A DNA stretch of 64,000 nt from assembly GCA_045617945.1 (NCBI GenBank), contig JAZLJS010000101.1, positions 11,529 through 75,528 of the forward strand, read 5' to 3'. This stretch comes from Lachnospiraceae bacterium (GTDB taxonomy: Bacteria; Bacillota; Clostridia; Lachnospirales; Lachnospiraceae). Positions 4,472-61,394 of this stretch are shown one piece after another. Position numbers and translations under genes: made by a program. The notes under the pieces were generated by a model. The model was not told the origin of the DNA, ran no database searches, and saw only the letters and a program-made list of their open reading frames with translations. Position 1 is the stretch's first letter, and every line of letters starts with the position of its first letter.

Positions 4472-4498
4472 CCGGTAGGCTTTCCTACCGGCATTTTT
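4472..4498 (+). terminator. Rho-independent terminator-like hairpin
   Basis: CCGGTAGG-cttt-CCTACCGG followed by CATTTTT, 10 nt after the Hpt stop. Confidence 0.6.
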
Positions 4499-4525
4499 GG
4501 ATAACAATAATAGGAGATTACATTA

Positions 4526-5602: not shown

Positions 5603-5647
5603 AATGATTGGTGCTTTTGGTGACTTTCTGACGGGGGATAGGGAATA

Positions 5648-9887: not shown

Positions 9888-9935
9888 AAGCCGGCCGAAT
9901 CCTCCTCGGCATTCCGCAAAGACCGAAATTTATGA

Positions 9936-9956
9936 CATAATTCATGATGAATTATG
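9936..9956. promoter_or_regulatory. Perfect 21-bp palindrome (operator-like)
   Basis: CATAATTCAT-g-ATGAATTATG lies between the palindrome array and the GTPase gene. Confidence 0.4.
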
Positions 9957-10046
9957 TTTCATTTCATATCGTGATTGTATTATTATGAAGTTGATGTGTG
10001 AGCACAGAACCGACAAAGCAGAAGTGACAGTAAAGAAGCAGCAGTA

Positions 10047-10127
10047 CAGAAGCAACAATATAGAGCCACAATTCAATAGCAATAGCACAGAAGCAACAGT
10101 GCAGAAGCAACAATACAGAGCCACAAT
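10047..10127. repeat. 26-bp direct repeat x 2 within a T-poor, CA/GA-rich leader
   Basis: CAGAAGCAACAATA(T/C)AGAGCCACAAT at 10047-10072 and 10102-10127. The roughly 130 nt before the ATG at 10160 contain very few T on the + strand. Confidence 0.8.
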
Positions 10128-10159
10128 ACAAATAGCAACAGTTAGGATATTACAGAGTT

Positions 10160-25990: not shown

Positions 25991-27922
25991 ATGATAAGGC
26001 TTATGAGAATCTTATTAGTGGCAATAAACAGCAAATATATTCATTCCAACCCTGCCGTATATGACCTCAGGGCTTATACTATAGCACACTTTTTTGAGGA
26101 TTGCGATACTACATATCCCGCTGACGCGAAAGTCACTCGTTCCGAGAATATGCCCGACATCCTGATTCGTGAATATACTATTAATCAGCCGCTAATGGAT
26201 ATTGCACGTGACATTTACAGGAATAAGCCGGATGTTTTGGCGTTCTCCTGTTATATTTGGAATATCGAAACCGTATCGCAGCTTTTGGGAATCCTTCATA
26301 AGATAATGCCTGATGTACCGATTTGGCTGGGCGGTCCCGAAGTAAGCTATGATGTTGCGAAAGACTCCGAAGTTGCAAGAAATTCTGCGAAGCATCCTTT
26401 GAACTTTGATGGAAATTCTGTGGAGCGTTCTATGAACTCTGACGGATATTCAGATGTAAGGGGAATTATCTGCGGCGAAGGCGAGAAGAGTTTTTGCAGA
26501 CTTGTAAGAGCATATGCCTGCGGACAGCAGGATGACCTGCCGCACGTTCTTTATCCTGACAGTGAACTGTCTATGGATGATCTTCCGTTTCCTTATGAAG
26601 ATACCGAACCGTTTCGCAACCGTATTATATATTACGAAACCAGTCGCGGCTGCCCATACGCATGTAGCTACTGCCTTTCCGCAGGCGAGCGACTTTTGGG
26701 GACAGGACAACAAACTGCAGGTGAGCGACTTTTGGGGATAGGACAACAAACTGCGGGCGAGCGACTTTCGCCCTTGGGCGGGGACTGCAACAGTCGTATA
26801 AAGTTTCGCAGCCTGTCGCTTGTTTATAAGGAATTGCAACATTTTCTGGATGCGCGTGTGCCGCTTGTAAAGTTTGTGGATCGTACGTTTAACTGTAATC
26901 ATGCGCATGCCATGGGCATCTGGGAATATTTGAGCGATCATGATAATGGGGTAACGACGTTTCATTTTGAGATTGCGGGTGAGATCCTGACGGAGGAAGA
27001 GATAGCGTTGCTGTCAACGCTTCGAAAAGGGCTGGTGCAGTTGGAAATCGGCGTGCAGACTGTTAATTCCGAGACTTTGCGTGCTATTTGCAGAGCATCC
27101 GATCCCGGGAAATTGCGCAGAATTGTGGCAAAACTCCTCGCGCCGGCGAACATACATATTCATCTTGACCTGATTGCCGGGTTGCCGTTTGAGAATCTGG
27201 CATCGTTCCGTCATTCCTTTGACGAAGTGTATTCGATGGGCGGGCATGATTTGCAGCTTGGATTTTTGAAACTTTTGAAGGGGTCGCCGTTATATGAGCG
27301 GGCCCAAGAGTATGGAATTGTCTGCTCGGACTGCGCACCGTATGAGGTGCTGTATACAAAGTGGCTGTCGTTTGATGACATCCTTTTGCTTAAGAGCGTA
27401 GAGGAAATGGTGGAAGTATACCATAACAGTCTGCAGTTTATGAATACGATGGCCTATTTGGAGAGCCGATTCGATTCACCGTTTTGTATATATGAAGAAC
27501 TGGCGGTATATTATAGAGGAAACGGACTGGATGAACGCTCGCATAATCGGTTTGCCAGATATGAAATATTGCGGGATTGGTGGCTTGATAAGCATCCCGA
27601 AGATGATGCGGTATTTACGGAGATTCTTCTTACGGATATGTATCTTCGTGAGAATGTGAAGAACCGTCCTGCATATGGAAAGAACGGTGAGGTTGTTGCG
27701 CGGGAGTATCGGATGTTTTTTGAAAACCGCGGTTACGAAGAGTTCCTGCATGATTACGCTGATTATTCGCCGACCCAGGTGTCCCATATGGTACATATAG
27801 AGAAGGTCGGTGCGGCGGGCCATATTTTGTTTGATTACAGAGAACGCAATCCCATTACGGGGAATGCTACGACATATTATATAGAAGAGAAGGATTGGAG
27901 AAGGTTATGCAATACAAATTGA
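25991..27922 (+). CDS. B12-binding domain radical SAM protein (DUF4080-type C-terminus)
   Basis: MRILLVAINSKYIHSNPAVYDLRAY N-terminus. CxxxCxxC motif CPYACSYC. Carries an unusual repeat insertion right after that motif. Confidence 0.8.
   Translation: MIRLMRILLVAINSKYIHSNPAVYDLRAYTIAHFFEDCDTTYPADAKVTRSENMPDILIREYTINQPLMDIARDIYRNKPDVLAFSCYIWNIETVSQLLGILHKIMPDVPIWLGGPEVSYDVAKDSEVARNSAKHPLNFDGNSVERSMNSDGYSDVRGIICGEGEKSFCRLVRAYACGQQDDLPHVLYPDSELSMDDLPFPYEDTEPFRNRIIYYETSRGCPYACSYCLSAGERLLGTGQQTAGERLLGIGQQTAGERLSPLGGDCNSRIKFRSLSLVYKELQHFLDARVPLVKFVDRTFNCNHAHAMGIWEYLSDHDNGVTTFHFEIAGEILTEEEIALLSTLRKGLVQLEIGVQTVNSETLRAICRASDPGKLRRIVAKLLAPANIHIHLDLIAGLPFENLASFRHSFDEVYSMGGHDLQLGFLKLLKGSPLYERAQEYGIVCSDCAPYEVLYTKWLSFDDILLLKSVEEMVEVYHNSLQFMNTMAYLESRFDSPFCIYEELAVYYRGNGLDERSHNRFARYEILRDWWLDKHPEDDAVFTEILLTDMYLRENVKNRPAYGKNGEVVAREYRMFFENRGYEEFLHDYADYSPTQVSHMVHIEKVGAAGHILFDYRERNPITGNATTYYIEEKDWRRLCNTN
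26681..26785 (+). repeat. In-frame 36-bp tandem repeat (about 2.9 copies) inside the radical SAM CDS
   Basis: GCAGGCGAGCGACTTTTGGGGACAGGACAACAAACT at 26681 and 26717, plus a diverged third copy. It encodes AGERLLGTGQQT-AGERLLGIGQQT-AGERLSPLGGD. Confidence 0.9.
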
Positions 27923-32426: not shown

Positions 32427-32533
32427 TAGCAGCAGAAAGTCGAGGTACAACAGGTTCTTTTTTATAGAAAAGAGGAGTGCTTTCTGGGTTTTGCGAGGTA
32501 GTATGCAGCATTCCTGTGAAATGGAGCGTTAGT

Positions 32534-34654
32534 ATGATTAATTTGCTTATTATTCAAAATTTATCTGAAATTCAGAATAATTCATATTGTGATACGTCGG
32601 GTTTGTGGAATCGTTTTGACAAAAAGTGTGTGTTTATTACCCGCGATAATTTGGATATATTATCTCAATCAATTGATGATAGCCAGTGCATTGTGTTTGC
32701 TTCGAACTGTCTTCGAGATGAGCAGATTTTGAAGGCATTTATGTCCGATGAGATTCGGAAAAAAATGGCAGATTTCGTCAAAAGAGGGAACAGCTGTCTG
32801 TTTCTTCATCAATTGATGCCTGATGGAACCGAATTGAATTTGTTTGATGGAATTGACGAACTTAGCTTCACAATTAAGAAGAATGCGGATAAAAACGGTA
32901 ATGGTTTGCTGGAGTTTTCTTCTTCTTTGTATTTGGCATATCAATGCTTCCCTAATGAACTTGATTTGAAAGAAATATATAACCGTTCGAGAGAATTTGT
33001 GTTTGTGCCAGGGATATTTTGGCATACGTATTACTCTCCGTCAATGATGTTTAATGCGATTCTTGAAGACTCAGATCATAATATTTTGATTAGCGTAGCC
33101 AAGAATTATCCTGTGATTTATGCCAGCATGATTCTTGATTGGCAGCTTCAAAAGGAACTTTTGGAGAATTTGATTACGAATCTTTATAGTGGTGGGAAAT
33201 GCATAGGTATTGTACATGATAAAGAGAATAAGGATATTTCCTATATGGAACTTACCAATTCCCTAAATGAGAGAAAGGTATGTTTCTATGTATATGATGC
33301 TTCTTCAGAAGCGGATCTTTTGCTTATGCGAAAAAGAATTGATTCCAAATGCCATTCGATGATTCTTTTAGATACGGATGTATTGGATTTGAATGGTGAG
33401 ATTTATGAAAAGTGTTATAAACAAGGTATTAATTGTATCCGTATAAATGCAGATTCATTACATGAATATGATAAAACGTTGGTTTGGCATGATAATTATC
33501 AGGCCAGTTATCAGATGCTTACCCAACTGGAAATAGAAGTTCAAAAAGTACTTGGTAATATGCTAATAGAGAATAGTTTTTCCACTACAATACAAGTGCT
33601 TAAGTTATTGCTTGATAGTGGGAAACCTTCCGGTAATTATGAAATTGAAAAACTTCAAATCGTGATGGATTATATTGAAAAACATCTTATGAGTGATGGG
33701 TCATATGATTATACATTTGGCGCAACGTGTAGAATGCTATGGTTTTTTAAACGTATTTGTAAGCAAAACAATCCGATTGTAGCAAAGCGGATTGCTGCGG
33801 CTAAAGCGTGGTTGAAGAATATGAATACGGATTTGTTCAGACCTCGAGAACTGATTGAATTAGCGTATGCTTGTGATGAGGATTTGAATAGTGCGCTTGA
33901 AAAATGTTTTCAATATGATTTAGATGCGGAAGCCACGGTTTATGATCTTATTGAAATGGGATCCTTGGCGCAAAAACAACAGCGATATGATTTGGAACGA
34001 ATATGTATAGAAAAACTGGTTGCACGTAAGGAGTCAATTGGGTATTCCGAAGATGAACTGATGAAGTTCTGTATGATTTTGACCCGCTTTATCGCGAAAG
34101 GCAGATTTATCAATGCAGAAGAAAAGGATAAATATTCAGCGCTCTTGGTTTCAGGAATAAGTGATTTGCAGAGCTGGGATCCGATAGGTAAAAACATTGC
34201 GAAGAATATTGAAAAGTGCCTCTTGTTTATTGAATATGAGAAATTGATTCATCATCCGATTGATACAATATTAAAGCTGCATGAAGTGGGCGATGGAAGC
34301 ATTTCGGCCAAATTACATGATCATGTCAGTATGATTGAAGATTATCGTGTTGATGTTTATGTTCAAGGAAAGCAAATTGAAAATTTGCGAAATAAGAACA
34401 GGAATCTTTCTGTATTTAAGAATGCATTTTGGATTGCAGTGATTTGCATGATCCCGATAATATATCTTAGTATCTGGTTATTGGTTTGGTTAGGGGAAAA
34501 TGCTAAACTGGGCGAGATGTTTCGTGATATAATTGTTTCCTACTGGCAATATCATACGGTCCTTGTGTCAGCATTGGTAGCGGCTACATCCGGAATTGTC
34601 AGCCGGATTATCAAGAAGAACTCTGAAAAGCATTTGGACGAATTGGAGAAATAA
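32534..34654 (+). CDS. Orphan 706-aa protein with two C-terminal TM helices; no family recognised
   Basis: ATG at 32534 lies 7 nt after GGAG. AT-rich. N-terminal strand/helix region (QCIVFASNCL...GNSCLFLHQLM), a central helical-repeat region (SDGSYDYTFGATCRMLWFF), and C-terminal FWIAVICMIPIIYLSIWLLVWL and TVLVSALVAATSGIV. Confidence 0.7.
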   Translation: MINLLIIQNLSEIQNNSYCDTSGLWNRFDKKCVFITRDNLDILSQSIDDSQCIVFASNCLRDEQILKAFMSDEIRKKMADFVKRGNSCLFLHQLMPDGTELNLFDGIDELSFTIKKNADKNGNGLLEFSSSLYLAYQCFPNELDLKEIYNRSREFVFVPGIFWHTYYSPSMMFNAILEDSDHNILISVAKNYPVIYASMILDWQLQKELLENLITNLYSGGKCIGIVHDKENKDISYMELTNSLNERKVCFYVYDASSEADLLLMRKRIDSKCHSMILLDTDVLDLNGEIYEKCYKQGINCIRINADSLHEYDKTLVWHDNYQASYQMLTQLEIEVQKVLGNMLIENSFSTTIQVLKLLLDSGKPSGNYEIEKLQIVMDYIEKHLMSDGSYDYTFGATCRMLWFFKRICKQNNPIVAKRIAAAKAWLKNMNTDLFRPRELIELAYACDEDLNSALEKCFQYDLDAEATVYDLIEMGSLAQKQQRYDLERICIEKLVARKESIGYSEDELMKFCMILTRFIAKGRFINAEEKDKYSALLVSGISDLQSWDPIGKNIAKNIEKCLLFIEYEKLIHHPIDTILKLHEVGDGSISAKLHDHVSMIEDYRVDVYVQGKQIENLRNKNRNLSVFKNAFWIAVICMIPIIYLSIWLLVWLGENAKLGEMFRDIIVSYWQYHTVLVSALVAATSGIVSRIIKKNSEKHLDELEK

Positions 34655-39165: not shown

Positions 39166-41373
39166 ATGGCTATTTTTTTGTGGATGTTAACAGCAATTAC
39201 GGTCTGCCTGGCAGGTATGGAAGTGCTGTATGTATACAAACAGAGTCCGACTCGCGAGTCGAAACTTTTACAGTTGGTGTGCTTTTGTAACCTTATTCAG
39301 GCTACAGGAAACATGGAAGCGGTCATAGGACAGACTTCGGAAGCATGTTATACCGGCTTGATAATCACATATTTCGGCGGATCGCATGTTGCGTTGTTTT
39401 TCCTTCTTCTGATGTGTGAGATTGTTCATGTTAACTTGCCGAAGTGGTTTATAACGCTGTCTACTGCAATTGATGTTATCTTCATCGGACTGGCAGTTTT
39501 CGAGGATAAGCTTCATTTCTATTACAGAAGCATTTCTTACGATACAAGCGGATTGATCAGCTCCCGTACGGTTGATTTTGCGCCGGGGTTCTATGTATAT
39601 CTTGGCTTTCTTGTATCTTATTTTATTGTTATTTTGGCAATTATTATTAAAGCCCGTGCAAGAAACGCGACGGAATTCGCGCGTGTGTTCAAAGCTGTTC
39701 GAGGTTTTATGTTTGCGGCGTTTTTTTCATACGGTGGGTCGCTTGTTTCTACGATATTCAAACTACGGTATGATTTTACGGCAGCAGGTCTTTCCATCGG
39801 TTTGCTGCTCTTGATTTTGCTTGTTTATAAGTATCGTGTATATCCGATGCGTCAGGATGCCGAGGATACAATACTGAATCAGATAAACGATGTGCTCCTT
39901 TCCTATGACAAGGATGGTCACCTTATATATTGCAACAAGCGTGCGCAGGATGTTCTTCATATTGAGACGGAATTTATGTACGGAATGCCGGTGGATGATG
40001 TCAGTGATGATCTGAGCCGGGTATTGATGCTTGCTCCGGAAGAGCAGATTACGCTTGATAATCACATTTATTCCTGTTCATTGTTCAAATTTGATACGGA
40101 AGATGGCGGCACGGGTATTATTCGCTGGCTAAGGGATATTACTTTGGAGCAAAGTCAGGTAAACGAAATGATACGACTGAAGGAGGAAGCTGATCATGCC
40201 AATGAGGCCAAGTCGGTGTTCCTGGCCAGAATGTCGCATGAGATTCGTACACCGATTAATGCCATCATTGGAATGGATGAGTTGATTCTTCGAGAAGCAC
40301 AGGAAGAGTCGATTAAGAACTACGGCGTTAATATTATGAGAGCCGGCAAAACGCTTCTGTCATTAATCAGTGATGTACTTGACTTTTCCAAAATGGAAGC
40401 AGGCAAGATGTCAATTGTTGAAGATGAGTACAGCTTGTCCGCAATGTTGCGTGATTTGTCACTGATGATTCGCATGCGCGCAGAGAAGAAGGGACTTACG
40501 TATCATTTGAACGCACCACAGGATTTGCCGGAGAAACTGTTCGGTGATGAATTGCGAGTTCGACAGATTATTACGAATGTTCTTACAAATGCCGTGAAAT
40601 ATACGCAGAGCGGCAGCATTATGATGAGCGTGGAAGCGCTTCCGACAGGAAGCGACAAGATAGAGATGCTTGTTTCAATAAAGGATACGGGTGTTGGAAT
40701 CAAGGAAGAAGATATACCGAAACTGTTCACGTCATTTGACCGCATTGAAAATGCGGAGACTCATAAGACGGAAGGCAGCGGTCTGGGCCTTAACATTACC
40801 GATAATTTGATTCGGTTAATGGGCGGCCGGATGACGGTTAAGAGTAAATACGGAGAAGGCAGTGAATTTATATTGATTATTCCGCAGCATGTGCATGGTA
40901 CGGAAACGGTTGGCGTAATTAGTGATCAGATCAGTGAATCCGAGATGAACCGTGATAAGAATCGAATTAAGTTCAGGGCTCCCGAAGCGCATATTCTGGT
41001 GGTGGATGATAATCGTGTGAACAGAACATTGTCTAAAGCATTTTTGAAAGGTACCGATATTCTTGTTGACGAAGCGGATTGCGGTCAGAAATGTTTGGAT
41101 ATGATTCGCGACACAGCATATGATTTGATATTGATGGATCACAGAATGCCGGGATTATCCGGTGTTGAGACACTTCAGATGATGCGTATGAATACCGACC
41201 ATAAATGCGTGGGTGTTCCGGTGATTATTATGACGGCCGATGTTGGAGAAGATCGGCAATCGTATTTCTTAAGAATGGGATTTGCGGCATATATCGGTAA
41301 GCCGATGAACGCGGTGGAGTATGAGAATCTTGTCAGAACATATTTGCCGCAGGAGAGGGTTATTTTGTTGTAA
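39166..41373 (+). CDS. Hybrid sensor histidine kinase/response regulator (multi-TM plus PAS-like sensor)
   Basis: H-box MSHEIRTPINAIIGM, N-box NVLTNAVKYT, G-boxes KDTGVGI and GSGLGLNI. REC (ILVVDDNRVN, LILMDHRMPGLSG, YIGKP). Confidence 0.9.
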   Translation: MAIFLWMLTAITVCLAGMEVLYVYKQSPTRESKLLQLVCFCNLIQATGNMEAVIGQTSEACYTGLIITYFGGSHVALFFLLLMCEIVHVNLPKWFITLSTAIDVIFIGLAVFEDKLHFYYRSISYDTSGLISSRTVDFAPGFYVYLGFLVSYFIVILAIIIKARARNATEFARVFKAVRGFMFAAFFSYGGSLVSTIFKLRYDFTAAGLSIGLLLLILLVYKYRVYPMRQDAEDTILNQINDVLLSYDKDGHLIYCNKRAQDVLHIETEFMYGMPVDDVSDDLSRVLMLAPEEQITLDNHIYSCSLFKFDTEDGGTGIIRWLRDITLEQSQVNEMIRLKEEADHANEAKSVFLARMSHEIRTPINAIIGMDELILREAQEESIKNYGVNIMRAGKTLLSLISDVLDFSKMEAGKMSIVEDEYSLSAMLRDLSLMIRMRAEKKGLTYHLNAPQDLPEKLFGDELRVRQIITNVLTNAVKYTQSGSIMMSVEALPTGSDKIEMLVSIKDTGVGIKEEDIPKLFTSFDRIENAETHKTEGSGLGLNITDNLIRLMGGRMTVKSKYGEGSEFILIIPQHVHGTETVGVISDQISESEMNRDKNRIKFRAPEAHILVVDDNRVNRTLSKAFLKGTDILVDEADCGQKCLDMIRDTAYDLILMDHRMPGLSGVETLQMMRMNTDHKCVGVPVIIMTADVGEDRQSYFLRMGFAAYIGKPMNAVEYENLVRTYLPQERVILL

Positions 41374-41399
41374 TTCATTACAATACGGGGGTAGTGTTA

Positions 41400-43304
41400 A
41401 TGAAGAATAAGAAAATTGCAGTATTTGCCAATGGATGGAGTGGAGAATTTCTTAAATATGTATTGGAAGGTATCCGCAAAGAAGCTGCCAAGGACGGAGT
41501 GGATATTTTCGTATATATGACATATATATTCTTCATGGATGATCCTTTGCAGAGCAAATGCCAGTTGAATATATTCCATCTTCCGAATCCGAAAGATTAT
41601 GACGGTGCAATCATGTTGACCAATACATTTAATCTTTCTGATGAGCAGGAACGAATCCGCGCCCTTTTTCAACGAGCGGGTGTTCCGATGATTTCTACCG
41701 AAGTGAAGGTGCCTGGTATGGCATACATGGGAACCGGTAATTATCAGGGCGTTTATGAACTGGCCGAGCATTTGATTACTGTCCATAATGTGAAGAACGT
41801 CGTATACTTAAGCGGGATTAAAGGAAATGAGGAATGTGCAATCCGTAAGCGTGCGCTTTGCGATGCGTTGAAGGCACACGGACTTACGTTGACGGATACG
41901 TTACAGGGCGATTTTGGATTCTATACGGGTTATATACTGACCAAGCAGTGGGTTCAAAGCGGTAAGGAGATTCCCGATGCATTTGTTTGTGCAAACGATC
42001 ACTCGGCGATCGGGGTTTCTGCAGCGTTGTATGAAATGGGAATCAAGGTTCCCGAACAGGTTATTGTTACGGGATTTGACCGTATTACGGAAGCGATTTC
42101 TTCATTCCCGATGATTGCTTCGGTAACGAGACGATGGGATAAATTCGGCGAGAATGTATACCATGAATTATGCAAGCAGATGGAGAATCTGAATCCGGAA
42201 TTTGAGCTGGTAACTGATTCGGAGTTTGTTCCGGCAGAAAGCTGTGGCTGTAAACCGTCTGAGGAAGCAATTCATGCCCGTTATGAAATTGTACGAAATG
42301 CATATTCTTCGAGAATTTATTCGGAGAGATTGGATATTTTCTTTCAGAGCATGCGTCTGGAACTTGCTAAGGTTGAATCCAAAGAGGAGTTTCATGAAGT
42401 GGCTACGAAACTGTTTGGCGCGAATGACTTTCTCGGAGATGATTTTGCGATTTGCGTGGAACCGGCATTTTTCGAGTTGGACGACGAGAGCTATCCTCAG
42501 CGAATTCGAGGTTACAGCAATGTGATGGATGTGTTGTATGAGAAACGCGCCGGAAAAGCAATGCCTCTTCGTCAGTTCCATACCAAGGAGATTATACCGA
42601 ATTATCATAAAGCTCCGAATGACTCCAATATTTATTTCCTCGTTCCGTTGAACAATCTGCAATATATTATCGGATATGTGGTTGTTAAGAACGACGCGGG
42701 AATGATTTATGACCAGACTTTCCGTAACTGGATTATGAATATGAACACGACGTTTATTAACGTTCGACAGTATATTTTTGCGCAGGAGAGCAATCGTAAG
42801 TTGAAAGAGATTTACATGATGGATTTCCTGTCAAATATGTATAATCGTACGGGTTGCGAGAAGGTGATTTTCCAGCATGTAGAGGATGAGAAGGCTGAGG
42901 GTCGAAGCGTTCTCCTGTTATTTGCGGATATTAACTGCATGAAGAAGATTAATGATGAACATGGCCATTTAATGGGAGATCTCGCAATAAAGATTACAGC
43001 TGATGCAATGCGAAAGTCATTGCCGGACGGTTGGTTATTGGGGCGCTACGGTGGTGATGAATTTGTGGCTGTCGGACCGTGCCTGGATGAGGAAACAACT
43101 ATTGCACAGAAAAATGCCCTGGATGTTTCCATGAAGCGATATATTGAGAAACTATCATTAAGTTTTCCGTTGTCGGCAAGCGTCGGATTCTCTGTTGCGA
43201 GACCGGATGAAGAAAAGAGCATTGAAGAATATATCAGTGAAGCAGATGAGTCCATGTATGATGAGAAACAGAAAGCCCATCAGCAAATGGGATTTTCGGA
43301 ATAG
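41400..43304 (+). CDS. Diguanylate cyclase with N-terminal LacI/PBP-type (sugar-binding-like) domain
   Basis: N-terminal KKIAVFANGWSGEF... periplasmic-binding-fold pattern without a signal peptide. C-terminal GGDEF domain with an intact RYGGDEF. Confidence 0.8.
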   Translation: MKNKKIAVFANGWSGEFLKYVLEGIRKEAAKDGVDIFVYMTYIFFMDDPLQSKCQLNIFHLPNPKDYDGAIMLTNTFNLSDEQERIRALFQRAGVPMISTEVKVPGMAYMGTGNYQGVYELAEHLITVHNVKNVVYLSGIKGNEECAIRKRALCDALKAHGLTLTDTLQGDFGFYTGYILTKQWVQSGKEIPDAFVCANDHSAIGVSAALYEMGIKVPEQVIVTGFDRITEAISSFPMIASVTRRWDKFGENVYHELCKQMENLNPEFELVTDSEFVPAESCGCKPSEEAIHARYEIVRNAYSSRIYSERLDIFFQSMRLELAKVESKEEFHEVATKLFGANDFLGDDFAICVEPAFFELDDESYPQRIRGYSNVMDVLYEKRAGKAMPLRQFHTKEIIPNYHKAPNDSNIYFLVPLNNLQYIIGYVVVKNDAGMIYDQTFRNWIMNMNTTFINVRQYIFAQESNRKLKEIYMMDFLSNMYNRTGCEKVIFQHVEDEKAEGRSVLLLFADINCMKKINDEHGHLMGDLAIKITADAMRKSLPDGWLLGRYGGDEFVAVGPCLDEETTIAQKNALDVSMKRYIEKLSLSFPLSASVGFSVARPDEEKSIEEYISEADESMYDEKQKAHQQMGFSE

Positions 43305-43315
43305 GATGTGATGTA

Positions 43316-43723
43316 ATGCTTGAATTTGATGAATTTACCCAGAAGGATTTGCAAACGGTAACATCTGCCATCGAAGAATATATGGAAAGCATGGGGGCTC
43401 CGATGCGGGCGACTTCACAGGTGATGATTGCATTGGATGAAATACTTAGTAATATTGTGAAGTTTGCATATCCGGGAACTGTTGGATACGCGTCGGTTGA
43501 TTATGAACCATTGCCCGATTCGAATGGTATTCGAATTGTGTTTACCGATTATGGCGTGCCGTATAATCCGCTTTTGCAGGAAGATCCTGATATTACTCTT
43601 TCGGCTCGGGAACGCGAAGCTGGTGGATTGGGAATATTCATGGTTAAGAAAACCATGAGCGATATAACATATAGGTATGAGGATAATAAAAATATTCTTA
43701 CTATAATAAAGTTATTTGCATAA
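43316..43723 (+). CDS. SpoIIAB/RsbW-like anti-sigma-type serine kinase (HATPase_c_2)
   Basis: 135 aa. N-box-like ALDEILSNIVKFAY, G1-like TDYGVPYNP, G2-like GGLGIFMVKK. Confidence 0.75.
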   Translation: MLEFDEFTQKDLQTVTSAIEEYMESMGAPMRATSQVMIALDEILSNIVKFAYPGTVGYASVDYEPLPDSNGIRIVFTDYGVPYNPLLQEDPDITLSAREREAGGLGIFMVKKTMSDITYRYEDNKNILTIIKLFA

Positions 43724-43735
43724 AGGAGAGGAAAA

Positions 43736-44035
43736 ATGAACATTACTCAGAACAAGGAAGAAACCAAGTTAACAATTGCATTGGAAGGTCGTTTGGATAC
43801 GACAACAGCGCCTTCACTTGAGGAAGTGACGAGTTCTGCACTTGTCGATGTAAAGGAATTGATTTTTGATTTTTCGCAGCTTGAGTACATTTCTTCTGCA
43901 GGACTTCGTGTTATTCTTGCCGCTCAGAAGACAATGAACAAACAGGGCGAGATGAAAGTTGTAAAGGCAAACGAGAACATTAAGGAAATCTTCGATATTA
44001 CGGGATTTTCGGATATTATTACATTGGAAGACTGA
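43736..44035 (+). CDS. STAS-domain anti-sigma-factor antagonist (SpoIIAA/RsbV-like)
   Basis: 99 aa. LEGRLDTTTAP... and LEYISSAGLRVIL with a candidate phosphorylatable Ser. Confidence 0.8.
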   Translation: MNITQNKEETKLTIALEGRLDTTTAPSLEEVTSSALVDVKELIFDFSQLEYISSAGLRVILAAQKTMNKQGEMKVVKANENIKEIFDITGFSDIITLED

Positions 44036-44051
44036 TTGAGAGAACAGTTAC

Positions 44052-46034
44052 GTGAGTAAGAAAAGAGTTCGAAAGATAAAACGGTTGAGAAGACGGCACG
44101 TTTGGCCGCATTTATTTCTTTCACTGCTTGTGTTGATTGTTTTTAACGGTGCTTTCGTTGCGTCGGCATATCTCTTTTTTGAGAATACTTTGGAGAATAA
44201 GGTTATTTCGGGATATCAACGTATCGCGATGATCGCCGATGTTTTGAATCGTCAAAACAGTGATGAGTACATTACACAGAACCTTTTCAGCATCCGGTCA
44301 ATTATTCCGGAGATTGCATCGCTATGCGTGGTTGATGCGAATAATAAGTGTACACAGCATATCGGAACACAATTTCCGAACCTTAATGAGGCCCAGAATT
44401 TGTTGGCGTCCGGGCAGGAAATGACTTTGATTCCGTTAACGGAGGAATTGTTTATTGTTACAGACTCCGGTTCGCTGGTGATTAATCCTGCAACCGTGCA
44501 AGAGAATGTTCGTGATGTCCATGTACAGTTTGAGCGTCTTTCTTATCAGGAGGAATCGGCAACATGGAAGGCCGAAAGCTGTTGGTTTATTGTTCCTTAC
44601 GGGGAAAAGGGCGAGAAATTATGCGTTTTGTGTGATGTCGCCGTTACAAATTATGAGATAAACAGCATTGCGGTGGCATCCTTGATTGCCCTTACCCTGG
44701 CCGGATTGCTATGTCTGCATCAGATATGGGAAGTTGTAAAGATTCTGAATGATCGCCGCAAGATTCGTAAGCTTGTATACACCGATTTTTCGACCGGGGC
44801 GATGAACAGAATCTTTTTCCGTGATACGGGAGATAAACTGCTTCGGAGAAGACTCTACAGACAATATGCTGTTGTGCAGCTGCAGATGGAGAAGTACAGA
44901 AATTATTGCATGTACTATTCCGAGGAAAAGGGCGAGGATTTGCTGGAGAGAATCCAGGAATACCTTGTGAAGTTTATTAATCACAGAGAGTGCGTTGCGC
45001 ATATTGAGGCGGCTGATTTTGCACTTCTTTTGATGTACACGAATGAGACGGAATTGAATCAGCGGATAAACGGCCTGATGCAGTCCTTAAAGGGTCTGAT
45101 ACCGACCAATAAGGATTGCTTTTTGGCGGGTGTATCTGCCTGCGGTCACGAAAATGATGTAATGCATTATTATATAGAAGCAGGTGTTGCACGCCATTCC
45201 ATCAGGGATGATTCCGAAACCCGGATCTTGTGGTTTAATGAAGACCTGAAGGCTACACAGATATGGGAACGCAAGGTGGAAGACGATATGGAAGGCGCGT
45301 TATCAAGACACGAATTCCAATTGTTCATTCAGCCGAAGTACAGTGCCAAGGAAGAGAAAATTGCAGGCGGCGAGGCACTTATTCGTTGGATGCATCCGAC
45401 AGAAGGTTTTGTGTCACCCGGCCGTTTTATTCCTATATTTGAGAATAACGGATTTATTACCAAAATAGATGATTATATGATTAGCGCACTTGCTGCGGCA
45501 CAGGCCAAATGGTTGTCGGAAGGCAAGCCGATTGTCCCGATTTCCGTAAATGTATCGCGCGTTCATTTTATGCGCGATGATCTTGCGGAGCATATCTGTT
45601 CGCTTGTGGATGCATATAATGTTCCACATGAATATATTGAACTGGAACTTACCGAGAGCGCATTCTTCGATGACAAAGATGTTTTGTTACGTATTGTAAA
45701 GAAAATGCAATCGTACGGCTTCCACGTATCGATGGATGACTTTGGCTCGGGATATTCATCTCTGAATTCATTAAAGGAATTGCCGCTGAATGTAATCAAA
45801 CTCGATGCCGAATTCTTCAGAGGTTCGGATGATTTGATTGAGAGATCCAAAGTCATTGTGCGCAATACGATTGAACTGGCGAAGGAACTGGGAATGACGA
45901 TTGTCGCCGAGGGCGTTGAATACCGTGAGCAGGTTGACTTTTTGGCATCCATTGATTGCGATTTGATTCAAGGTTTCTATTTTGACAAGCCGATGCCGGC
46001 ACAGGAATTTGCCAAGAAAGCGTTCGGAGAATAA
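44052..46034 (+). CDS. Membrane-anchored degenerate-GGDEF / EAL c-di-GMP phosphodiesterase
   Basis: GTG start. Two TM helices flank an extracytoplasmic-looking domain. The GGDEF position reads IEAADF. EAL motifs are intact (EALIRW, ELTES, DDFGSGYSSL, EGVE, QGF). Confidence 0.85.
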   Translation: MSKKRVRKIKRLRRRHVWPHLFLSLLVLIVFNGAFVASAYLFFENTLENKVISGYQRIAMIADVLNRQNSDEYITQNLFSIRSIIPEIASLCVVDANNKCTQHIGTQFPNLNEAQNLLASGQEMTLIPLTEELFIVTDSGSLVINPATVQENVRDVHVQFERLSYQEESATWKAESCWFIVPYGEKGEKLCVLCDVAVTNYEINSIAVASLIALTLAGLLCLHQIWEVVKILNDRRKIRKLVYTDFSTGAMNRIFFRDTGDKLLRRRLYRQYAVVQLQMEKYRNYCMYYSEEKGEDLLERIQEYLVKFINHRECVAHIEAADFALLLMYTNETELNQRINGLMQSLKGLIPTNKDCFLAGVSACGHENDVMHYYIEAGVARHSIRDDSETRILWFNEDLKATQIWERKVEDDMEGALSRHEFQLFIQPKYSAKEEKIAGGEALIRWMHPTEGFVSPGRFIPIFENNGFITKIDDYMISALAAAQAKWLSEGKPIVPISVNVSRVHFMRDDLAEHICSLVDAYNVPHEYIELELTESAFFDDKDVLLRIVKKMQSYGFHVSMDDFGSGYSSLNSLKELPLNVIKLDAEFFRGSDDLIERSKVIVRNTIELAKELGMTIVAEGVEYREQVDFLASIDCDLIQGFYFDKPMPAQEFAKKAFGE

Positions 46035-46168
46035 GGATTATATGTGCAAAAAGTACATAAAAGTAAAATTTGTGCGTATAAATGTAAAAGAATTGTATTC
46101 TCATTGATATGGGGAATGATTAAAATGACACTAGTATTTGTGCAAGTTGTTGGATGAAGGAAGATAAA

Positions 46169-46726
46169 ATGAAGAAATTTAGTCTTTATTCGATAATAGG
46201 CGCGATCCTCATGATGGGCACACTGCTGGTGGGCTGCGGATCACAGAAAGTGGAATCTCCCGTAGTTGGTAAGTGGGCATACATCCACGATGAGACGACA
46301 GAAATTTTGAATGTTTCCGCGAACGGAACGGCTGTATATAAAGGTGATAAGTACAAAGTTGCCGATGAAAACGGATTTCTGATTTTATCCGGAACGGGCA
46401 AAGATAAGCTGAAACTTCGGTACGAGATATCCGGTGAAGATTTATATTTATACGAACCGGCCTTCTATACATTCGAAGGCAGCGAGGATCCGGAAGGCTT
46501 AATTGGAAAGTGGTCCAATCCCACAACCAAATGGAGCTTTGAGTTCTATGATGACGGTACATTCCGTGAGGACGGATATTTCCCCGGTTATTATATGCTC
46601 GATGAAGCAACATCATCTTTTAAGCTGGCATACGAAGATCATTTTGAGGATACGACCTGTTATTACAATATAGAAGGCAGAGAACTTACAGTCGAATATC
46701 CTTGGCGCATGATTCGAATGAAATAG
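46169..46726 (+). CDS. Small lipoprotein of unknown function
   Basis: Signal peptide with lipobox LLVGCGS. I chose the ATG at 46169, after GAAGGA. Confidence 0.65.
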   Translation: MKKFSLYSIIGAILMMGTLLVGCGSQKVESPVVGKWAYIHDETTEILNVSANGTAVYKGDKYKVADENGFLILSGTGKDKLKLRYEISGEDLYLYEPAFYTFEGSEDPEGLIGKWSNPTTKWSFEFYDDGTFREDGYFPGYYMLDEATSSFKLAYEDHFEDTTCYYNIEGRELTVEYPWRMIRMK

Positions 46727-54670: not shown

Positions 54671-54768
54671 TTTGGTGTATCTGCGAAGTTTGTTTTTGCA
54701 AATTGTTGATGTATTTGTGAAGAATATTTTGCGAATTGTTGATTTGGTGTATCCGTGAAGAATATTTG
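54652..54768. repeat. Tandem duplication (about 36-bp unit x 3; 30-nt exact copies 72 bp apart) across a stop codon and the next start
   Basis: ATATTTTGCGAATTGTTGATTTGGTGTATC at 54652-54681 and 54724-54753. Copy 1 contains the last codons and TGA of the NUDIX gene. Copy 2 ends 1 nt before the GTG at 54755. Confidence 0.9.
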
Positions 54769-56272
54769 GAAATTGATTGGAAAGTGCATATTGGTTCTTG
54801 TCCCGGTGCTTCTGATTGCGCTTTATGCCGCGGCTAATTTCATGGCATACGCAGATTCGGAAGCTCCTTATTATGTGTGGAATCGTGAGGTTACCACATC
54901 TGTACAGGATGGCCCTGTTGATGTGATGATTCTGGGAGATTCTGCGGCAAATGCTGCATTTATGCCGGAACTTCTGTCTGAATCCACAGTGAATCTGGCC
55001 CTTGGCGGAACCACACCGTTGGAAAATTACTATGTGTTCACCGAGTGGCTTGCGCATAATGCTCCTCCGAAAGATTTGTTTATTGCATTTTCCGATTTGC
55101 ATATGCGTAAAGCAAATTGTTTCTGGGAGCGAACGATGTATTCGCATCGATTTACGCCTTCGGAGAATTATCGGATGATTCGCGAAGCGGCCAAGTATCA
55201 TGATGAAACGATTGCGCATCGCGGATGGCCGGCAGATTATCTGGCGTATGAATTGTACATGCCGGGGAAGTATATCACTTCGCTAACGGCAGCAGGTTTC
55301 AATAAGCGATTGGAGGACAATCGGTTCTATAAAGAAGAGATAGAGGTGTGCGGCGGTCGCTATATTGCACGTGGAAACACGGAGTGGGCAGCCGAGGCGC
55401 AAACGCTCGATGAATATGTTGTTTCCGATTTGATGGATTGTTATTATCGTCGAATTATTGACCTTGCGATTACGAACGGATGTCGTGTGCATGTAATCAA
55501 GCTTCCGTCACCGAATTGTGTGTTTACCGCATATACGTACATCGAACAGTGTAATGCATATTATGACGGCTTAAAGGAGAGTTACCCTGATATTACGGTG
55601 GATTGGTGGGGCGCATATGAGCCGTTTAGATTTTTTGATGATGTTCATATGAATACACATGGTGCGAGACTCTTTTCCACAGAACTTCGTGCCAAATATC
55701 AGGAATGTTTTACAGCTTCGGGTGATTCATCAGAAAGTGTCGCTGTGAACGCTTTATCTGAAAGTACAGCTTCGAACGATTCATCAGAAAGTGTCGCTGT
55801 GGCGGTTTCGGCGAATTTCGGTGCGCAGGGCGGTCGTAGTCTTGTTGCACGAAATAATGACATTTCTGCCGAAAATTACAAGGAGGAAATGGTGTATTGG
55901 ATTGACGGGCAGGACTACAGTCTGGTAGTTATGGATCCGACCGGGGAGATGGGAGAAGTGTTTTCCACATCAATTGCGGTATTGCAGGATCTTGATATGA
56001 AGAGTTACGCGCAGAATTCGGTATACATTGCACCACCGCATGCTGTGGCACGAGGCCTTGATATTGACGGAATGGCTGTGCCGGGTGCTTATATAATCGA
56101 TGGATTTGAGGGCGCATCCGAGAATTTTGCTGTGACTTTTGACGGGCAGTCCGTAACGATCATGTGCCCGGACGGAAGCAGTGAATTGTTGGATATGTAT
56201 GGTGAATATACGTTGTCAATGTGCGTTGTAGATAATTGCAGCGGCAAGATCTTATGCCGCAAGGATTTCTGA
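54755..56272 (+). CDS. Membrane-anchored SGNH/GDSL-like hydrolase or acyltransferase-accessory protein
   Basis: N-terminal TM helix. VMILGDSAANAAF (block I) and DDVHMNTHG (block V, DxxH). Internal SSESVAV repeat. GTG start with no clear RBS. Confidence 0.55.
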   Translation: MKNIWKLIGKCILVLVPVLLIALYAAANFMAYADSEAPYYVWNREVTTSVQDGPVDVMILGDSAANAAFMPELLSESTVNLALGGTTPLENYYVFTEWLAHNAPPKDLFIAFSDLHMRKANCFWERTMYSHRFTPSENYRMIREAAKYHDETIAHRGWPADYLAYELYMPGKYITSLTAAGFNKRLEDNRFYKEEIEVCGGRYIARGNTEWAAEAQTLDEYVVSDLMDCYYRRIIDLAITNGCRVHVIKLPSPNCVFTAYTYIEQCNAYYDGLKESYPDITVDWWGAYEPFRFFDDVHMNTHGARLFSTELRAKYQECFTASGDSSESVAVNALSESTASNDSSESVAVAVSANFGAQGGRSLVARNNDISAENYKEEMVYWIDGQDYSLVVMDPTGEMGEVFSTSIAVLQDLDMKSYAQNSVYIAPPHAVARGLDIDGMAVPGAYIIDGFEGASENFAVTFDGQSVTIMCPDGSSELLDMYGEYTLSMCVVDNCSGKILCRKDF

Positions 56273-57600: not shown

Positions 57601-58785
57601 ATGAGCAAGAACTATAAACAGACATTAACCGCGTGTTATTTGGGGTTTGTGACCCAGGCAATTTGTGCCAATTTTGCCCCGTTGTTGTTTCTTACTTTTC
57701 ATAGTGAGTATGGGATAAGCTTTGCATCGTTGGCATTGATTTCTACTGTGTTTTTCTTTACGCAGCTTCTGGTTGATCTGGTATGCACAAAACTTGTGGA
57801 TATTATCGGGTACAGAACCTGCGTGGTAGCCGCGGAAGTCACATCGGCACTTGGACTTGCGGGTTTTGCATTCATTCCGAATTTATTGCCGACTCCTTTT
57901 TCCGGAATTATTTTATGCGTGATCATATATGCTATCGGAAGCGGACTTACCGAAGTCTTGGTAAGCCCGATTGTGGAGGCATGTCCATTTGATAATAAAG
58001 AAGCGACCATGAGTTTGTTGCACTCATTCTATTGCTGGGGAAGCGTGGGCGTAATCCTCGGGTCAACCGTTTTCTTCGCATTGTTCGGGGTAGAGAATTG
58101 GAAGATCCTGGCAGTTTTATGGGCGCTTGTTCCTATGGTTAATATATATAATTTTGCTGTTTGTCCTATCGAACGCCTTGTTGAAGACGGAGAGGGTATG
58201 ACGGTTCGAGAGCTTTTCTCGACGAAGATTTTTTGGGTGTTTATCATCTTAATGATATGTGCCGGTTCATCCGAACTGGCCATGGCACAGTGGGCTTCTG
58301 CATTTGCGGAGTCTGCACTTGGCGTTTCCAAAACAATCGGTGACTTGGCGGGACCATGTGGATTTGCGATATGCATGGGAATCAGTCGTGCGTTGTACGG
58401 AAAGTATGGTGAACGGATTGATTTGACGACATTTATGGTATTTTCCGGTCTGCTGTGTCTGGGCTGTTATTTACTGGCGGCGTTGGCACAGATTCCGATA
58501 TTGGGACTTGTGGGATGCGCGCTTTGCGGATTCTCCGTAGGCATTATGTGGCCGGGCTCCATTAGCATTTCTTCGCGTATCCTCAAAAAGGGCGGGACTG
58601 CATTGTTTGCGCTTTTGGCACTTGCGGGCGATCTGGGAGGTTCTCTCGGACCGGCAATTGTAGGATTGTTTTCGCAGAGGGCGGGAGAAAATCTGCAGGC
58701 CGGGGTGCTATATGGTATCGGATTTCCGATAGTGCTGGTATTGTGTGTTTTGTATATTCGAAGACAAAAGAAAGCGGAGTCCTAA
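57601..58785 (+). CDS. MFS transporter
   Basis: About 12 TM helices in a two-halves organisation. Its stop overlaps the stop of the convergent kinase gene (CTAA, 58782-58785). Confidence 0.75.
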   Translation: MSKNYKQTLTACYLGFVTQAICANFAPLLFLTFHSEYGISFASLALISTVFFFTQLLVDLVCTKLVDIIGYRTCVVAAEVTSALGLAGFAFIPNLLPTPFSGIILCVIIYAIGSGLTEVLVSPIVEACPFDNKEATMSLLHSFYCWGSVGVILGSTVFFALFGVENWKILAVLWALVPMVNIYNFAVCPIERLVEDGEGMTVRELFSTKIFWVFIILMICAGSSELAMAQWASAFAESALGVSKTIGDLAGPCGFAICMGISRALYGKYGERIDLTTFMVFSGLLCLGCYLLAALAQIPILGLVGCALCGFSVGIMWPGSISISSRILKKGGTALFALLALAGDLGGSLGPAIVGLFSQRAGENLQAGVLYGIGFPIVLVLCVLYIRRQKKAES

Positions 58786-61274
58786 GACAGCGCTTTCTTG
58801 ACTTTCTCTATCAGTTGTGCAGGATTAATCGGCTTGGAAATGTAGTCGCTAAATCCCATATTTATATATTGTTCGACAGCACCGAGCATAGCATTTGCGG
58901 TTTGTACGATTACCGGAGTATCGATATTCATGCCATCTTGCTGTGCTCGAATTCTTTGCAGTGTTTCTTCACCATCCATTTCAGGCATCATATGATCCAT
59001 GAGGATTAAGTCATATTTGGTCTTGGCTGTGTATTCCAGTGCTTCGGCACCGCTTGTTGCAAGATCCAGATTGACTTCGGTCTTTTTCAAAAGTCCCTTC
59101 AGTACGCGCAAATTGACGGAAGTATCATCAACTGCAAGGATGTGAGCATTCGGAGCCTTGAAGACTTCGGGTTCTTCCTTCTTGATCTCGACTTTCTGCT
59201 CAACATATTCCAGATCATCGGTTGTTTCGCTGCCACACATTTTCTGTGTAATGTAAGCGGTAAAGGTGGAGCCTTCGCCATATGTGCTCTTAACATCAAT
59301 ATCGCCGTTCATTAATTCCGTCAGCATTTTGGACAGCGGAAGCCCTAGCCCTGTTCCTTGTACAGTGCGATTGACTTTCTCATTCAGACGACGGAAAGTT
59401 GTAAACAGATGCGGAATATCTTCGGGTTTGATGCCTTGACCGCTGTCTTCGACGGACATATACAGACAAATGTTATCGTCGGCAAGATCCTTCCAATCAA
59501 TCAAAACGTGAATGAAGCCCTTCTCCGTATATTTGATGGAATTGGAGATTAAGTTGTTCAGAATCTGGCGGACACGTGCCTCGTCACCGAACAGTTTGCA
59601 GGGAATCGGCTTGGCAAAGTTCACGGAAAAATCGAGATTCTTCTGATGTGCAGAATTCGAATTTATCATGAAACATTCACGAATGATGGAAACAAGATTA
59701 TACTCTGCTTCGTTCAAATCCAATTTGCCGGATTCGATCTTGGACAAATCAAGAATATTATTAATAATTGAAAGCAAAATATGGCCGGTAGTGTCGATAT
59801 CCTCGGCATATTTGAGGATGGCCGGCTCGGTACATTCTTTGAGAATAATGGAATTCATGCCCAACACGCCGTTTAGCGGTGTACGCATCTCATGGGACAT
59901 ATTGGTCAAAAAGACGCTCTTGGCTTCGCTGGCTGCTTTGCTGGCGGCGCTCTTCTTGGCTTCTTCAAGCATTTCGTAACGTAGGCAGTTTACGCAGTTT
60001 TCCTTGGTGTTGAATCCATTGTAAATGGCGTCAACCATTTGCGTACAGGAATCGTAGCCGCAACTGGAGCAATTGATTTTGCGCTCTGCACTTGTTTGCT
60101 TGCCCATGGATTCGAAGATGGCGTCGCGTTCTTCGTCAGTCGGCGTGGTATAGCCACAATGTGCGGACAAATCGGTATATATTCTGAGAAAGTCACTCAA
60201 CTCAAGATCGGCAAACTGCTCGTTCAGTTTCGCAAGGCGTTCTTCTTTGGAAAGTGACGGATCCCATGGATTGTCCTGATTGGATTGTTTGATTGCGTTG
60301 CGAATATGCATCTGTGAGAAGAGTACAAAGTCATGCTCGTTCTTCTCGGGATCACATCCGGTGCCGTAAATACAACCGTTGGAGCAGTTTAAGGCATCTA
60401 CCAGAATAAACGGAGCTATCTTGTTCTTGAGAATGGATTTGTTCTTCTCCAGATAATGGTACATGCGCTTCTCACCATCCATCTGGCGGACAAAAGCATC
60501 CTCGCCCAAGAACCAGCGAATGTTCTCGGTCAGACCGCCGGGCATAGGGTATACGCTTCCCAAACCGTACGGAACTTCATCGGTACAGGTAGATGGAATG
60601 CGGGGATGTGACTTTATGTATTGTATTAAATGTTTGAATGTGATGTTATAGCTGACGCGCCCTTCGTTAACGGGATCGTCAATTTCCATCTTCTTGGCAA
60701 TGCAAGGAGAGATGAATGCCAGAGAATCAGTGATGTTCATGTGTTTCTTGGCATAGATGGCAGCACACATCAACGGACTTTGAACGGGAATCAGGCAGTC
60801 AATCAATTCCGGAAGATGTCGTTCAACGTAGCTGACAACAGCCGGACAAGGTTGAGAGATTCCACCTTTAAAGTCATACTTCTGTATATAATTGATGTAT
60901 CCCCATGTGGCAATATCGGCACCAAACGATACGTTAATAAAGCGGTTTACACCGCAGGAACGCAAATAGCCGAGAAAGATGGGGTATTCGTTGGGATAGT
61001 TTGCTTTGAAGGCGGGTGCAATGAGAACCGAGATTTGTTTGCCGTTCTGCAAATCTTCGAAGAATCTCTCGGTATCGTCGCGGAATTCTCGAGCATGATG
61101 TTCACAAACATCCAGGCAGGCACCACAGCCGACGCAACGATTGGCGTCAACACGAATTTTGTGCACTCCGTTTTCTTCTACAGCAACACAAGCTCCGTTG
61201 GAGGAGCAAACACTGATACATCTGTTGCATCCGATACAATTGTCATTTGTGTAAATAAGTGAATTAGTAAGCAT
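58782..61274 (-). CDS. Hybrid histidine kinase/response regulator with N-terminal ferredoxin plus [FeFe]-hydrogenase-like (H-cluster-type) sensor domain
   Basis: 2x CxxCxxCxxxC (CIGCNRCISVC, CVGCGACLDVC). Hydrogenase-like motifs SQPCPAV, SPCIAKKME, NCSNGCIYG. CSSCGYDSCTQMVDAI Fe-S motif. H-box MSHEMRTPLNGVLGM. REC ILAVDD / LILMDHMMPEMDG. I chose the ATG at 61274; a TTG at 61292 is possible. Confidence 0.85.
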   Translation of the reverse strand: MLTNSLIYTNDNCIGCNRCISVCSSNGACVAVEENGVHKIRVDANRCVGCGACLDVCEHHAREFRDDTERFFEDLQNGKQISVLIAPAFKANYPNEYPIFLGYLRSCGVNRFINVSFGADIATWGYINYIQKYDFKGGISQPCPAVVSYVERHLPELIDCLIPVQSPLMCAAIYAKKHMNITDSLAFISPCIAKKMEIDDPVNEGRVSYNITFKHLIQYIKSHPRIPSTCTDEVPYGLGSVYPMPGGLTENIRWFLGEDAFVRQMDGEKRMYHYLEKNKSILKNKIAPFILVDALNCSNGCIYGTGCDPEKNEHDFVLFSQMHIRNAIKQSNQDNPWDPSLSKEERLAKLNEQFADLELSDFLRIYTDLSAHCGYTTPTDEERDAIFESMGKQTSAERKINCSSCGYDSCTQMVDAIYNGFNTKENCVNCLRYEMLEEAKKSAASKAASEAKSVFLTNMSHEMRTPLNGVLGMNSIILKECTEPAILKYAEDIDTTGHILLSIINNILDLSKIESGKLDLNEAEYNLVSIIRECFMINSNSAHQKNLDFSVNFAKPIPCKLFGDEARVRQILNNLISNSIKYTEKGFIHVLIDWKDLADDNICLYMSVEDSGQGIKPEDIPHLFTTFRRLNEKVNRTVQGTGLGLPLSKMLTELMNGDIDVKSTYGEGSTFTAYITQKMCGSETTDDLEYVEQKVEIKKEEPEVFKAPNAHILAVDDTSVNLRVLKGLLKKTEVNLDLATSGAEALEYTAKTKYDLILMDHMMPEMDGEETLQRIRAQQDGMNIDTPVIVQTANAMLGAVEQYINMGFSDYISKPINPAQLIEKVKKALS

Positions 61275-61394
61275 ACTATCAGAATACCACAATGAGGCAG
61301 GAATACAAGAAATATTCAGCGTGAAATTGAAATTTCGGTGTTGTAAATTTATAATAATCGTGTAAATCTTTTGCAGATATTAGGGAGACCGAAC

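Follow-up and report, generated by a model that had tools for sequence, protein, structure and literature searches.

The 64,000-nucleotide stretch of Lachnospiraceae DNA analysed here (hereafter the window) carries on its reverse strand a gene for a sensor-hybrid histidine kinase, whose N-terminal half resembles an [FeFe]-hydrogenase. Its reading frame (58782..61292, minus strand), the sole long open reading frame (ORF) of the interval, yields 836 residues from a TTG codon or 830 residues from the ATG at 61274, and the ATG start agrees with the N-termini of orthologues. In order, the 830-residue product consists of a ferredoxin-like domain for two [4Fe-4S] clusters, an [FeFe]-hydrogenase H-domain, a Cx2Cx4Cx16C motif, HisKA, HATPase_c and a receiver (Table 1), and all motif coordinates were verified by re-translation. 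A full-length homologue search returned as its top match a public protein, P0271, that is identical to the window protein; a word-indexed search with residues 1-438 omitted P0271, so that the missing 100% match in that search does not indicate absence. Very probably, the product is a soluble hybrid kinase of the cytoplasm whose input module bears metalloclusters, derives from a hydrogenase and is of the putative sensory group C type.

Table 1. Features of the hybrid kinase gene and of related signalling loci. Positions are those of the window, except where L057 and L085 are named; aa, amino acids.
Feature	Position	Strand	Description
Sensor-hybrid histidine kinase	58782..61274	-	Complete coding sequence, 830 aa plus stop; coordinates confirmed by re-translation
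N-terminal ferredoxin-like domain, aa 7-62	61089..61256	-	Pfam Fer4_6/7/21; two predicted [4Fe-4S] F-clusters
[FeFe]-hydrogenase H-domain, aa 80-304	60363..61037	-	Pfam Fe_hyd_lg_C (PF02906), 88 bits, E 1e-24, cutoff 22.1
L1 counterpart SQPCPAV	60837..60857	-	Pro142 at CpI Cys299; Cys143 = [4Fe-4S]H ligand Cys300
L2 counterpart SPCIAKKME	60684..60710	-	Ser189 = Met353, Cys191 = Cys355, Lys194 = Lys358, Glu197 = Glu361
L3 counterpart NCSNGCIYG	60363..60389	-	Leu295 just before = Met497; Cys297 = Cys499; Cys301 = bridging Cys503
C-terminal Cx2Cx4Cx16C (Cys402/405/410/427)	59994..60071	-	Accessory [4Fe-4S] site (predicted), of the kind usual in sensory hydrogenases of groups C and D
Linker, aa 428-451	59922..59993	-	Start of continuous predicted helix, aa 428-480
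HisKA dimerisation/phosphoacceptor domain, aa 452-516	59727..59921	-	His461 at 59892-59894; Pfam
HATPase_c, aa 563-675	59250..59588	-	N-box 574-583, G1 610-615, G2 640-645; Pfam
Receiver (Response_reg), aa 712-826	58797..59141	-	Asp760 phospho-acceptor at 58995-58997; Pfam
Phosphorelay/c-di-GMP cluster	3499..7966	+	Receiver 3499-4011, Hpt 4094-4462, REC-HD-GYP 4526-5602, hybrid kinase 5648-7966
Second signalling cluster	39166..46034	+	7TM-receptor hybrid kinase, PBP-GGDEF, 135-aa HATPase_c_2 protein, GGDEF-EAL
Clusters with ~1050-aa relatives	L057 12245..18473; L085 1151..11918		Several hybrid kinases (one with a DegV domain), then a ~250-aa protein with a C-terminal receiver

A first-pass annotation made from the letters alone had proposed two ferredoxin-type CxxCxxCxxxC motifs at the N-terminus, counterparts of the three H-cluster signature motifs (L1 to L3) with all four Cys ligands retained, replacement of the L1 proton-relay Cys by Pro and of the L3 Met by Leu, a further Fe-S motif after the H-domain, and a complete HisKA/HATPase core followed by a receiver. 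All of this architecture stood up to profile and structure comparison. The two N-terminal motifs (Cys13/16/19/23 and Cys47/50/53/57) fall within a Fer4-type dicluster domain recognised by Pfam. The register of the H-domain motifs was established by HMMER alignments to five solved [FeFe]-hydrogenases, including TmHydA (7p5h), CbA5H, TkHydA1 and CpI, in which SQPCPAV falls on TSCCPxW, SPCIAKKME on MPCxxKxxE and NCSNGCIYG on MxCxxGCxxG. In all five alignments the H-cluster ligands were in register, with Cys143, Cys191, Cys297 and Cys301 corresponding to Cys300, Cys355, Cys499 and Cys503 of CpI, and the family profile aligned CpI residues 135-535 in one uninterrupted stretch. In CpI numbering, Cys299 is the proton relay, Met353 and Met497 frame the [2Fe] site, and Lys358 pairs with Glu361; the Pro and Leu proposed for the first and third of these positions are Pro142 and Leu295. 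After the H-domain, the sequence CSSCGYDSCTQMVDAIYNGFNTKENC fits Cx2Cx4Cx16C exactly, and the Pfam family FeS (PF04060) matches residues 399-428 with 20.7 bits, slightly below its cutoff of 23, and relatives with 30-34 bits. Finally, an AlphaFold2 model of residues 1-440 (predicted local distance difference test score, pLDDT, 74) matched TmHydA, CpI, CbA5H, TkHydA1 and DdH with a Foldseek probability of 1.0, and the query-normalised template modelling score to solved hydrogenases was 0.55-0.60. By its PF02906 score, its fold and its four in-register Cys residues, the window protein belongs to the [FeFe]-hydrogenase superfamily.

This fold and these ligands, together with the low activity retained by the Thermotoga maritima sensory protein HydS (TmHydS), could be taken to mean that the module is a catalytically competent hydrogenase with H2 production or uptake as its main role, and that the fusion to a kinase is incidental. 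The surroundings of the active site speak differently. In the CpI alignment the group-A proton pathway is replaced, with Pro142 for Cys299 and, at four further positions, Tyr126 for Glu279, Asn128 for Glu282, Lys132 for Arg286 and Ile162 for Ser319, and four residues of the [2Fe] pocket (Pro142, Ser189, Leu295 and Leu168, the last in place of Gln325) are unlike those of catalytic enzymes. The NCBIfam models for catalytic hydrogenases scored far under their cutoffs (TIGR04105, the best, 124 against 450 bits; TIGR02512, 81 against 406), and the fusions of the same module to methyl-accepting chemotaxis protein (MCP) domains and to domains of cyclic di-GMP (c-di-GMP) metabolism, described below, make sense for a sensor only. 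Based on the proton pathway and the NCBIfam scores we rejected a catalytic role, to which we give hardly any credence.

All key residues of the kinase and receiver are present, including the H-box His461, the N, G1 and G2 boxes, Asp716/717, Asp760 and Lys814, and a hybrid kinase in the Protein Data Bank, 7p8e, matched the window protein with 177 bits. In the full-length AlphaFold2 model (pLDDT 82.6), an unbroken helix runs over residues 428-480, from the last cluster Cys (Cys427) through His461, with the second helix of the dimerisation and histidine phosphotransfer (DHp) domain coming after it, which suggests that input and kinase are joined by a signalling-helix type of connection. The distance from the last cluster Cys to the phospho-His, 34 in the window kinase, is also the commonest value among relatives fused to histidine kinases (133 of the 169 counted). 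A clean heptad rule for the length of this linker cannot be claimed, however, since the spacings among representatives at 50% identity are too scattered (31, 34, 38, 41/42, 45, 48/49, 52 and others). Pfam found no histidine phosphotransfer (Hpt) domain within the kinase, and none is encoded adjacent to it; as a hybrid kinase lacking an Hpt domain, it therefore requires an unlinked Hpt protein and response regulator downstream.

To place the protein among its relatives, we combined full-length searches with an exhaustive search against representatives of clusters at 50% identity, of which the best 150 were taken. In about 95 of these 150, HisKA-HATPase comes after the sensor module, and most of these proteins have a receiver as well. 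The full-length search identified ten orthologues of ~830 residues at 64-74% identity, and more than 100 Lachnospiraceae proteins of ~1050 residues that are ~50% identical, carry an added C-terminal Hpt domain and are annotated just as 'response regulator'. Over residues 1-438 the nearest relatives are MCP-fused proteins of ~650 residues (60-64% identity), named after Lachnospiraceae, Butyrivibrio, Roseburia and Eubacterium metagenome-assembled genomes. Other relatives join the module to GGDEF, GGDEF-EAL or HD-GYP outputs (P0138, P0144, P0161 and P0174), and the N-terminal regulatory domains of Clostridiales sigma54 activators (enhancer-binding proteins) include Fer4, Fe_hyd_lg_C and FeS (PMC6615313). 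The [FeFe] subtypes named in HydDB are those linked to histidine kinases, MCPs or phosphatases only. In a tree of sensor modules, the ~830-residue clade had a bootstrap of 21/30 and its links to the MCP-fused and Hpt-bearing clades only 9-13/30, support at which a separate fusion event for the ~830-residue clade cannot be asserted.

Conservation was assessed over 104 sensor modules drawn from the 50%-identity clusters, 29-64% identical to the window protein. The 16 predicted cluster Cys residues (eight for the F-clusters, four for the H-cluster, four in the C-terminal motif) are invariant in all 104, and the equivalents of Lys358 and Glu361 are kept in about 100. The Ala-Pro of the cyanide (CN)-binding loop and the bridging-Cys motif are held to the same degree of conservation as the cluster ligands. 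At the position of Cys299, Pro predominates (84 modules, with Ala in 8 and Ser in 6), and the position of Met497 is Leu in nearly all. An input domain that bears a cofactor is expected to be conserved in this way and to recombine freely with output domains, and given these varied output fusions, the Fer4/H-domain/Cx2Cx4Cx16C unit behaves as a sensor module. These data also bear on the idea that the hydrogenase-like part survives only as a structural relic and that the kinase is regulated in some other way. An orphan gene with uninformative neighbours might be expected of such a decayed input domain; complete conservation of 16 Cys residues and of many pocket residues down to ~29% identity, in an intact ORF whose orthologues are 64-74% identical, is not. 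We consider decay very unlikely and rejected it on this conservation.

Turning to known systems, HydDB recognised in 2016 a group C with three subtypes, all putative: C1 (histidine-kinase-linked), C2 (chemotactic) and C3 (phosphatase-linked) (Sondergaard et al. 2016, PMC5037454). C1 is the kinase-linked subclass of putative sensory hydrogenases of which the first-pass annotation had spoken, and its statement that T. maritima HydS lacks the proton-relay Cys was likewise correct, the residue there being Ala. Groups C and D are described as having in common an N-terminal two-cluster domain and a C-terminal Cx2Cx4Cx16C motif, and as having lost Cys299 along with the group-A proton pathway (PMC8163306). 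Within the HydDB sensory set, the Cys299 position is occupied by Ala in 43%, Cys in 17%, Pro in ~10% and Ser in ~10%. The window protein resembles C1 in its sensor-kinase coupling, putative H2 sensing and occurrence in Clostridia; in the one C1 example considered here, from Vallitalea guaymasensis, a separate hydrogenase gene lies near the kinase gene, whereas in the window sensor, kinase and receiver form one polypeptide. With the MCP-fused C2 proteins of ~650 residues, it shares the ligands, the residues that replace Cys299 (Pro), Met353 (Ser) and Met497 (Leu), and the Cx2Cx4Cx16C motif, while their signalling output is an MCP rather than HisKA-HATPase-receiver. On sequence grounds, the protein would thus seem to stand between both subtypes, C1-like by its output domain and beside the C2-like proteins by its sensor.

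We also set the window protein against the published descriptions of TmHydS (group C, M2f) and of the HydS of Thermoanaerobacter mathranii (TamHydS; group D, M2e). Both resemble it in having two [4Fe-4S] clusters, an H-domain without Cys299 or the group-A pathway, and the Cx2Cx4Cx16C motif. TmHydS has Ala for Cys299, Gly for Met353 and Ser for Met497, and includes a PAS domain. In TamHydS, which lacks a fused output, Ser for Met353 and Leu for Met497 form the same pair as in the window protein. Both adjoin hydrogenase operons, whereas the window protein has Pro at Cys299, a fused hybrid kinase and an orphan gene. Since the Pfam scan of the window kinase showed no PAS domain after the C-terminal cluster, and since no hydrogenase operon is co-located, the kinase does not belong to the HydS (C3, M2f) subtype. 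The ~1050-residue Lachnospiraceae relatives (P0296, P0315) come from the same taxa and have the same fusion and junction, with ~50% full-length identity, but the window protein and its ~830-residue orthologues have neither their C-terminal Hpt domain nor their neighbourhood of several kinases and a small receiver protein. Regulatory [NiFe]-hydrogenase HoxBC with its kinase HoxJ (group 2b) follows the same principle, a low-activity hydrogenase signalling H2 to a histidine kinase, but through an unrelated metal site and fold and through separate sensor and kinase subunits, and it is experimentally proven. The fusion of sensor and kinase is widespread in public data and adds no new principle, and Pro at Cys299 and Ser and Leu at the Met positions are documented variants.

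The gene converges on a gene for a major facilitator superfamily (MFS) transporter on the plus strand, the stop codons overlapping by 4 nt (58782..58785), with no terminator-like hairpin between the two genes. On its upstream side lie a divergent small ORF and then genes for CAT-like and GNAT acetyltransferases. That no output regulator is adjacent, as the first-pass annotation had remarked, was confirmed, with the addition that no Hpt gene adjoins the kinase gene either, a point it had overlooked. The nearest regulators, an AraC-type pair (50145-52705) and the cluster at 3499-7966, were assigned to other systems. This cluster includes a standalone Hpt gene (4094..4462), 54 kb from the kinase gene and the sole Hpt of the window; it is a conceivable but unsupported partner, having no detectable similarity to the Hpt domain of the ~1050-residue relatives. 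The seven-transmembrane (7TM) hybrid kinase of the second signalling cluster shares 42% identity in its core with the kinase portion of the window protein. A 7TM hybrid kinase and a PBP-GGDEF protein occur beside two of the orthologues as well, but they are not orthologous to the window copies (37% and 29% identity). As the genes around the 74%, 70% and 65% orthologues are different in each case and unlike those in the window, the window kinase gene is an orphan whose neighbours are not conserved. The Hpt-bearing relatives of ~1050 residues are encoded among several kinase genes together with a small receiver protein, in one case with a REC-HD-GYP protein too, and the L057 and L085 clusters suggest that several kinases converge on one regulator.

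Among the other genes of the window are those for GH94, GH113, an arabinofuranosidase and a sugar ABC transporter, which, with the taxonomy of the relatives, point to fibre-degrading Lachnospiraceae of the rumen or gut. The only radical SAM protein encoded (25991..27922, plus strand) has the B12-binding/Radical_SAM/DUF4080 arrangement, with nothing indicating HydE or HydG. Between 32 and 36 kb the G+C content is 0.37, against ~0.44 elsewhere, and this stretch, which contains a 725-residue ORF with no Pfam match (32477..34654, plus strand), may be acquired DNA. Further plus-strand ORFs of 135-505 residues without a Pfam family lie at 54755..56272, 2553..3509, 46154..46726 and 9760..10167; the first, of 505 residues, has a hydrophobic N-terminal segment and a short Ser-rich internal repeat (SGDSSESVAV.../SNDSSESVAV...).

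What, then, might such a module sense? The first-pass annotation had proposed an H2- or redox-sensing kinase; its structural part was verified, and the sensing function remains a candidate read from the sequence. We judge the chance slightly better than even that the input is a non-catalytic, HydS-like module that senses H2 on behalf of the fused hybrid kinase. We favour H2 for three reasons: the residues that only an H-cluster needs are as conserved as the ligands themselves, [2Fe] is bound by those relatives that have been characterised, and the hosts make their living from fermentation that yields H2. In the rumen and gut, where fermentation is governed by H2, group C hydrogenases are abundant among the Clostridia and are expressed.

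The principal alternative is a kinase with [4Fe-4S] clusters and no [2Fe] subcluster, which would read the ferredoxin or NAD(P)H pool, or damage by O2 or nitric oxide, through reduction or loss of its clusters. It finds support in the four predicted [4Fe-4S] sites, which form a strictly conserved chain, and in the departure of Pro142, Ser189, Leu295 and Leu168 from the pocket of catalytic enzymes. Eukaryotic Nar1-type proteins offer a precedent, with the same Cys ligands and no [2Fe] site. A survey of Clostridium genomes rejected matches to group C2 as unvalidated hydrogenases. Nor did we find a genomic link: Pfam scans of essentially all sizeable ORFs of the window detected no hydrogenase and no HydE, HydF or HydG maturase, and no hydrogenase genes lie beside the window gene or three of its orthologues, unlike the situation for the HydS proteins of R. 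albus and T. maritima. Both absences weigh against H2 sensing, as do several further points. The kinase- and MCP-linked subgroups include no characterised protein, and the four Cys with Lys358 and Glu361 are not by themselves proof of a [2Fe] subcluster. A Leu at the Met497 position hampered [2Fe] insertion in a prototypical enzyme. The route of transmission is uncertain too, as H2 does not reduce the C-terminal cluster of TamHydS; this cluster is therefore more likely structural than a redox relay of the signal.

An Fe-S-only sensor would nevertheless have no need of the bridging-Cys motif, of Lys358 and Glu361 or of the Ala-Pro in the CN-binding loop, all strictly kept and all needless in a plain ferredoxin-type sensor. 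Pockets that are equally non-canonical do function: TmHydS and TamHydS are reported to accept the synthetic [2Fe] cofactor and to react slowly with H2, TamHydS binding [2Fe] with an azadithiolate (adt) bridge, [2Fe]adt (PMC8163306). Moreover, the hosts are fermenters of the Lachnospiraceae type, a group rich in [FeFe]-hydrogenases. Taken together, these points make a sensor without [2Fe] unlikely in our estimate, although it deserves real weight.

If the module does sense H2, the following sequence of events can be envisaged. The residues by which the H-cluster is held, four Cys and a Lys/Glu pair, are kept in the H-domain, which the HydEFG proteins of the host would mature with a [2Fe] subcluster. 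With Pro in place of the proton-relay Cys and the entire group-A pathway missing, H2 would then be bound and slowly split but not turned over. A conformational change might pass through the C-terminal Fe-S domain and the helix 428-480 to the DHp domain and modulate the autophosphorylation of His461, from which the phosphoryl group would travel to receiver Asp760, on to an unlinked Hpt protein and finally to a response regulator. More speculatively, since the module drives chemotaxis (MCP) and c-di-GMP enzymes in sister proteins, the output is probably an adjustment of lifestyle or fermentation to the build-up of H2, and not necessarily hydrogenase expression.

H2 sensing by group C has been an open question since it was proposed, and the proteins studied so far, TmHydS and TamHydS, have no measurable output activity. 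A sensor and kinase in one polypeptide is the most tractable system for addressing it, as H2 dependence can be read directly as autophosphorylation. In the rumen and gut, habitats in which this family is abundant, the partial pressure of H2 directs both fermentation and the formation of methane, and the pairing of the module with outputs for chemotaxis and c-di-GMP hints at H2 as a cue for behaviour in these bacteria. Tentatively, and with somewhat less than an even chance of being right, we suggest that the module with Pro at Cys299 is a dedicated, non-turnover H2 receptor serving every major output of the Lachnospiraceae (hybrid kinases, chemoreceptors, c-di-GMP cyclases and phosphodiesterases, and sigma54 activators), so that for fermenters of the gut and rumen H2 would act as a general behavioural cue for taxis, biofilm formation and mode of fermentation. 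If this is true, the autophosphorylation read-out offered by the kinase-fused form would provide the first proof of [FeFe]-based H2 sensing.

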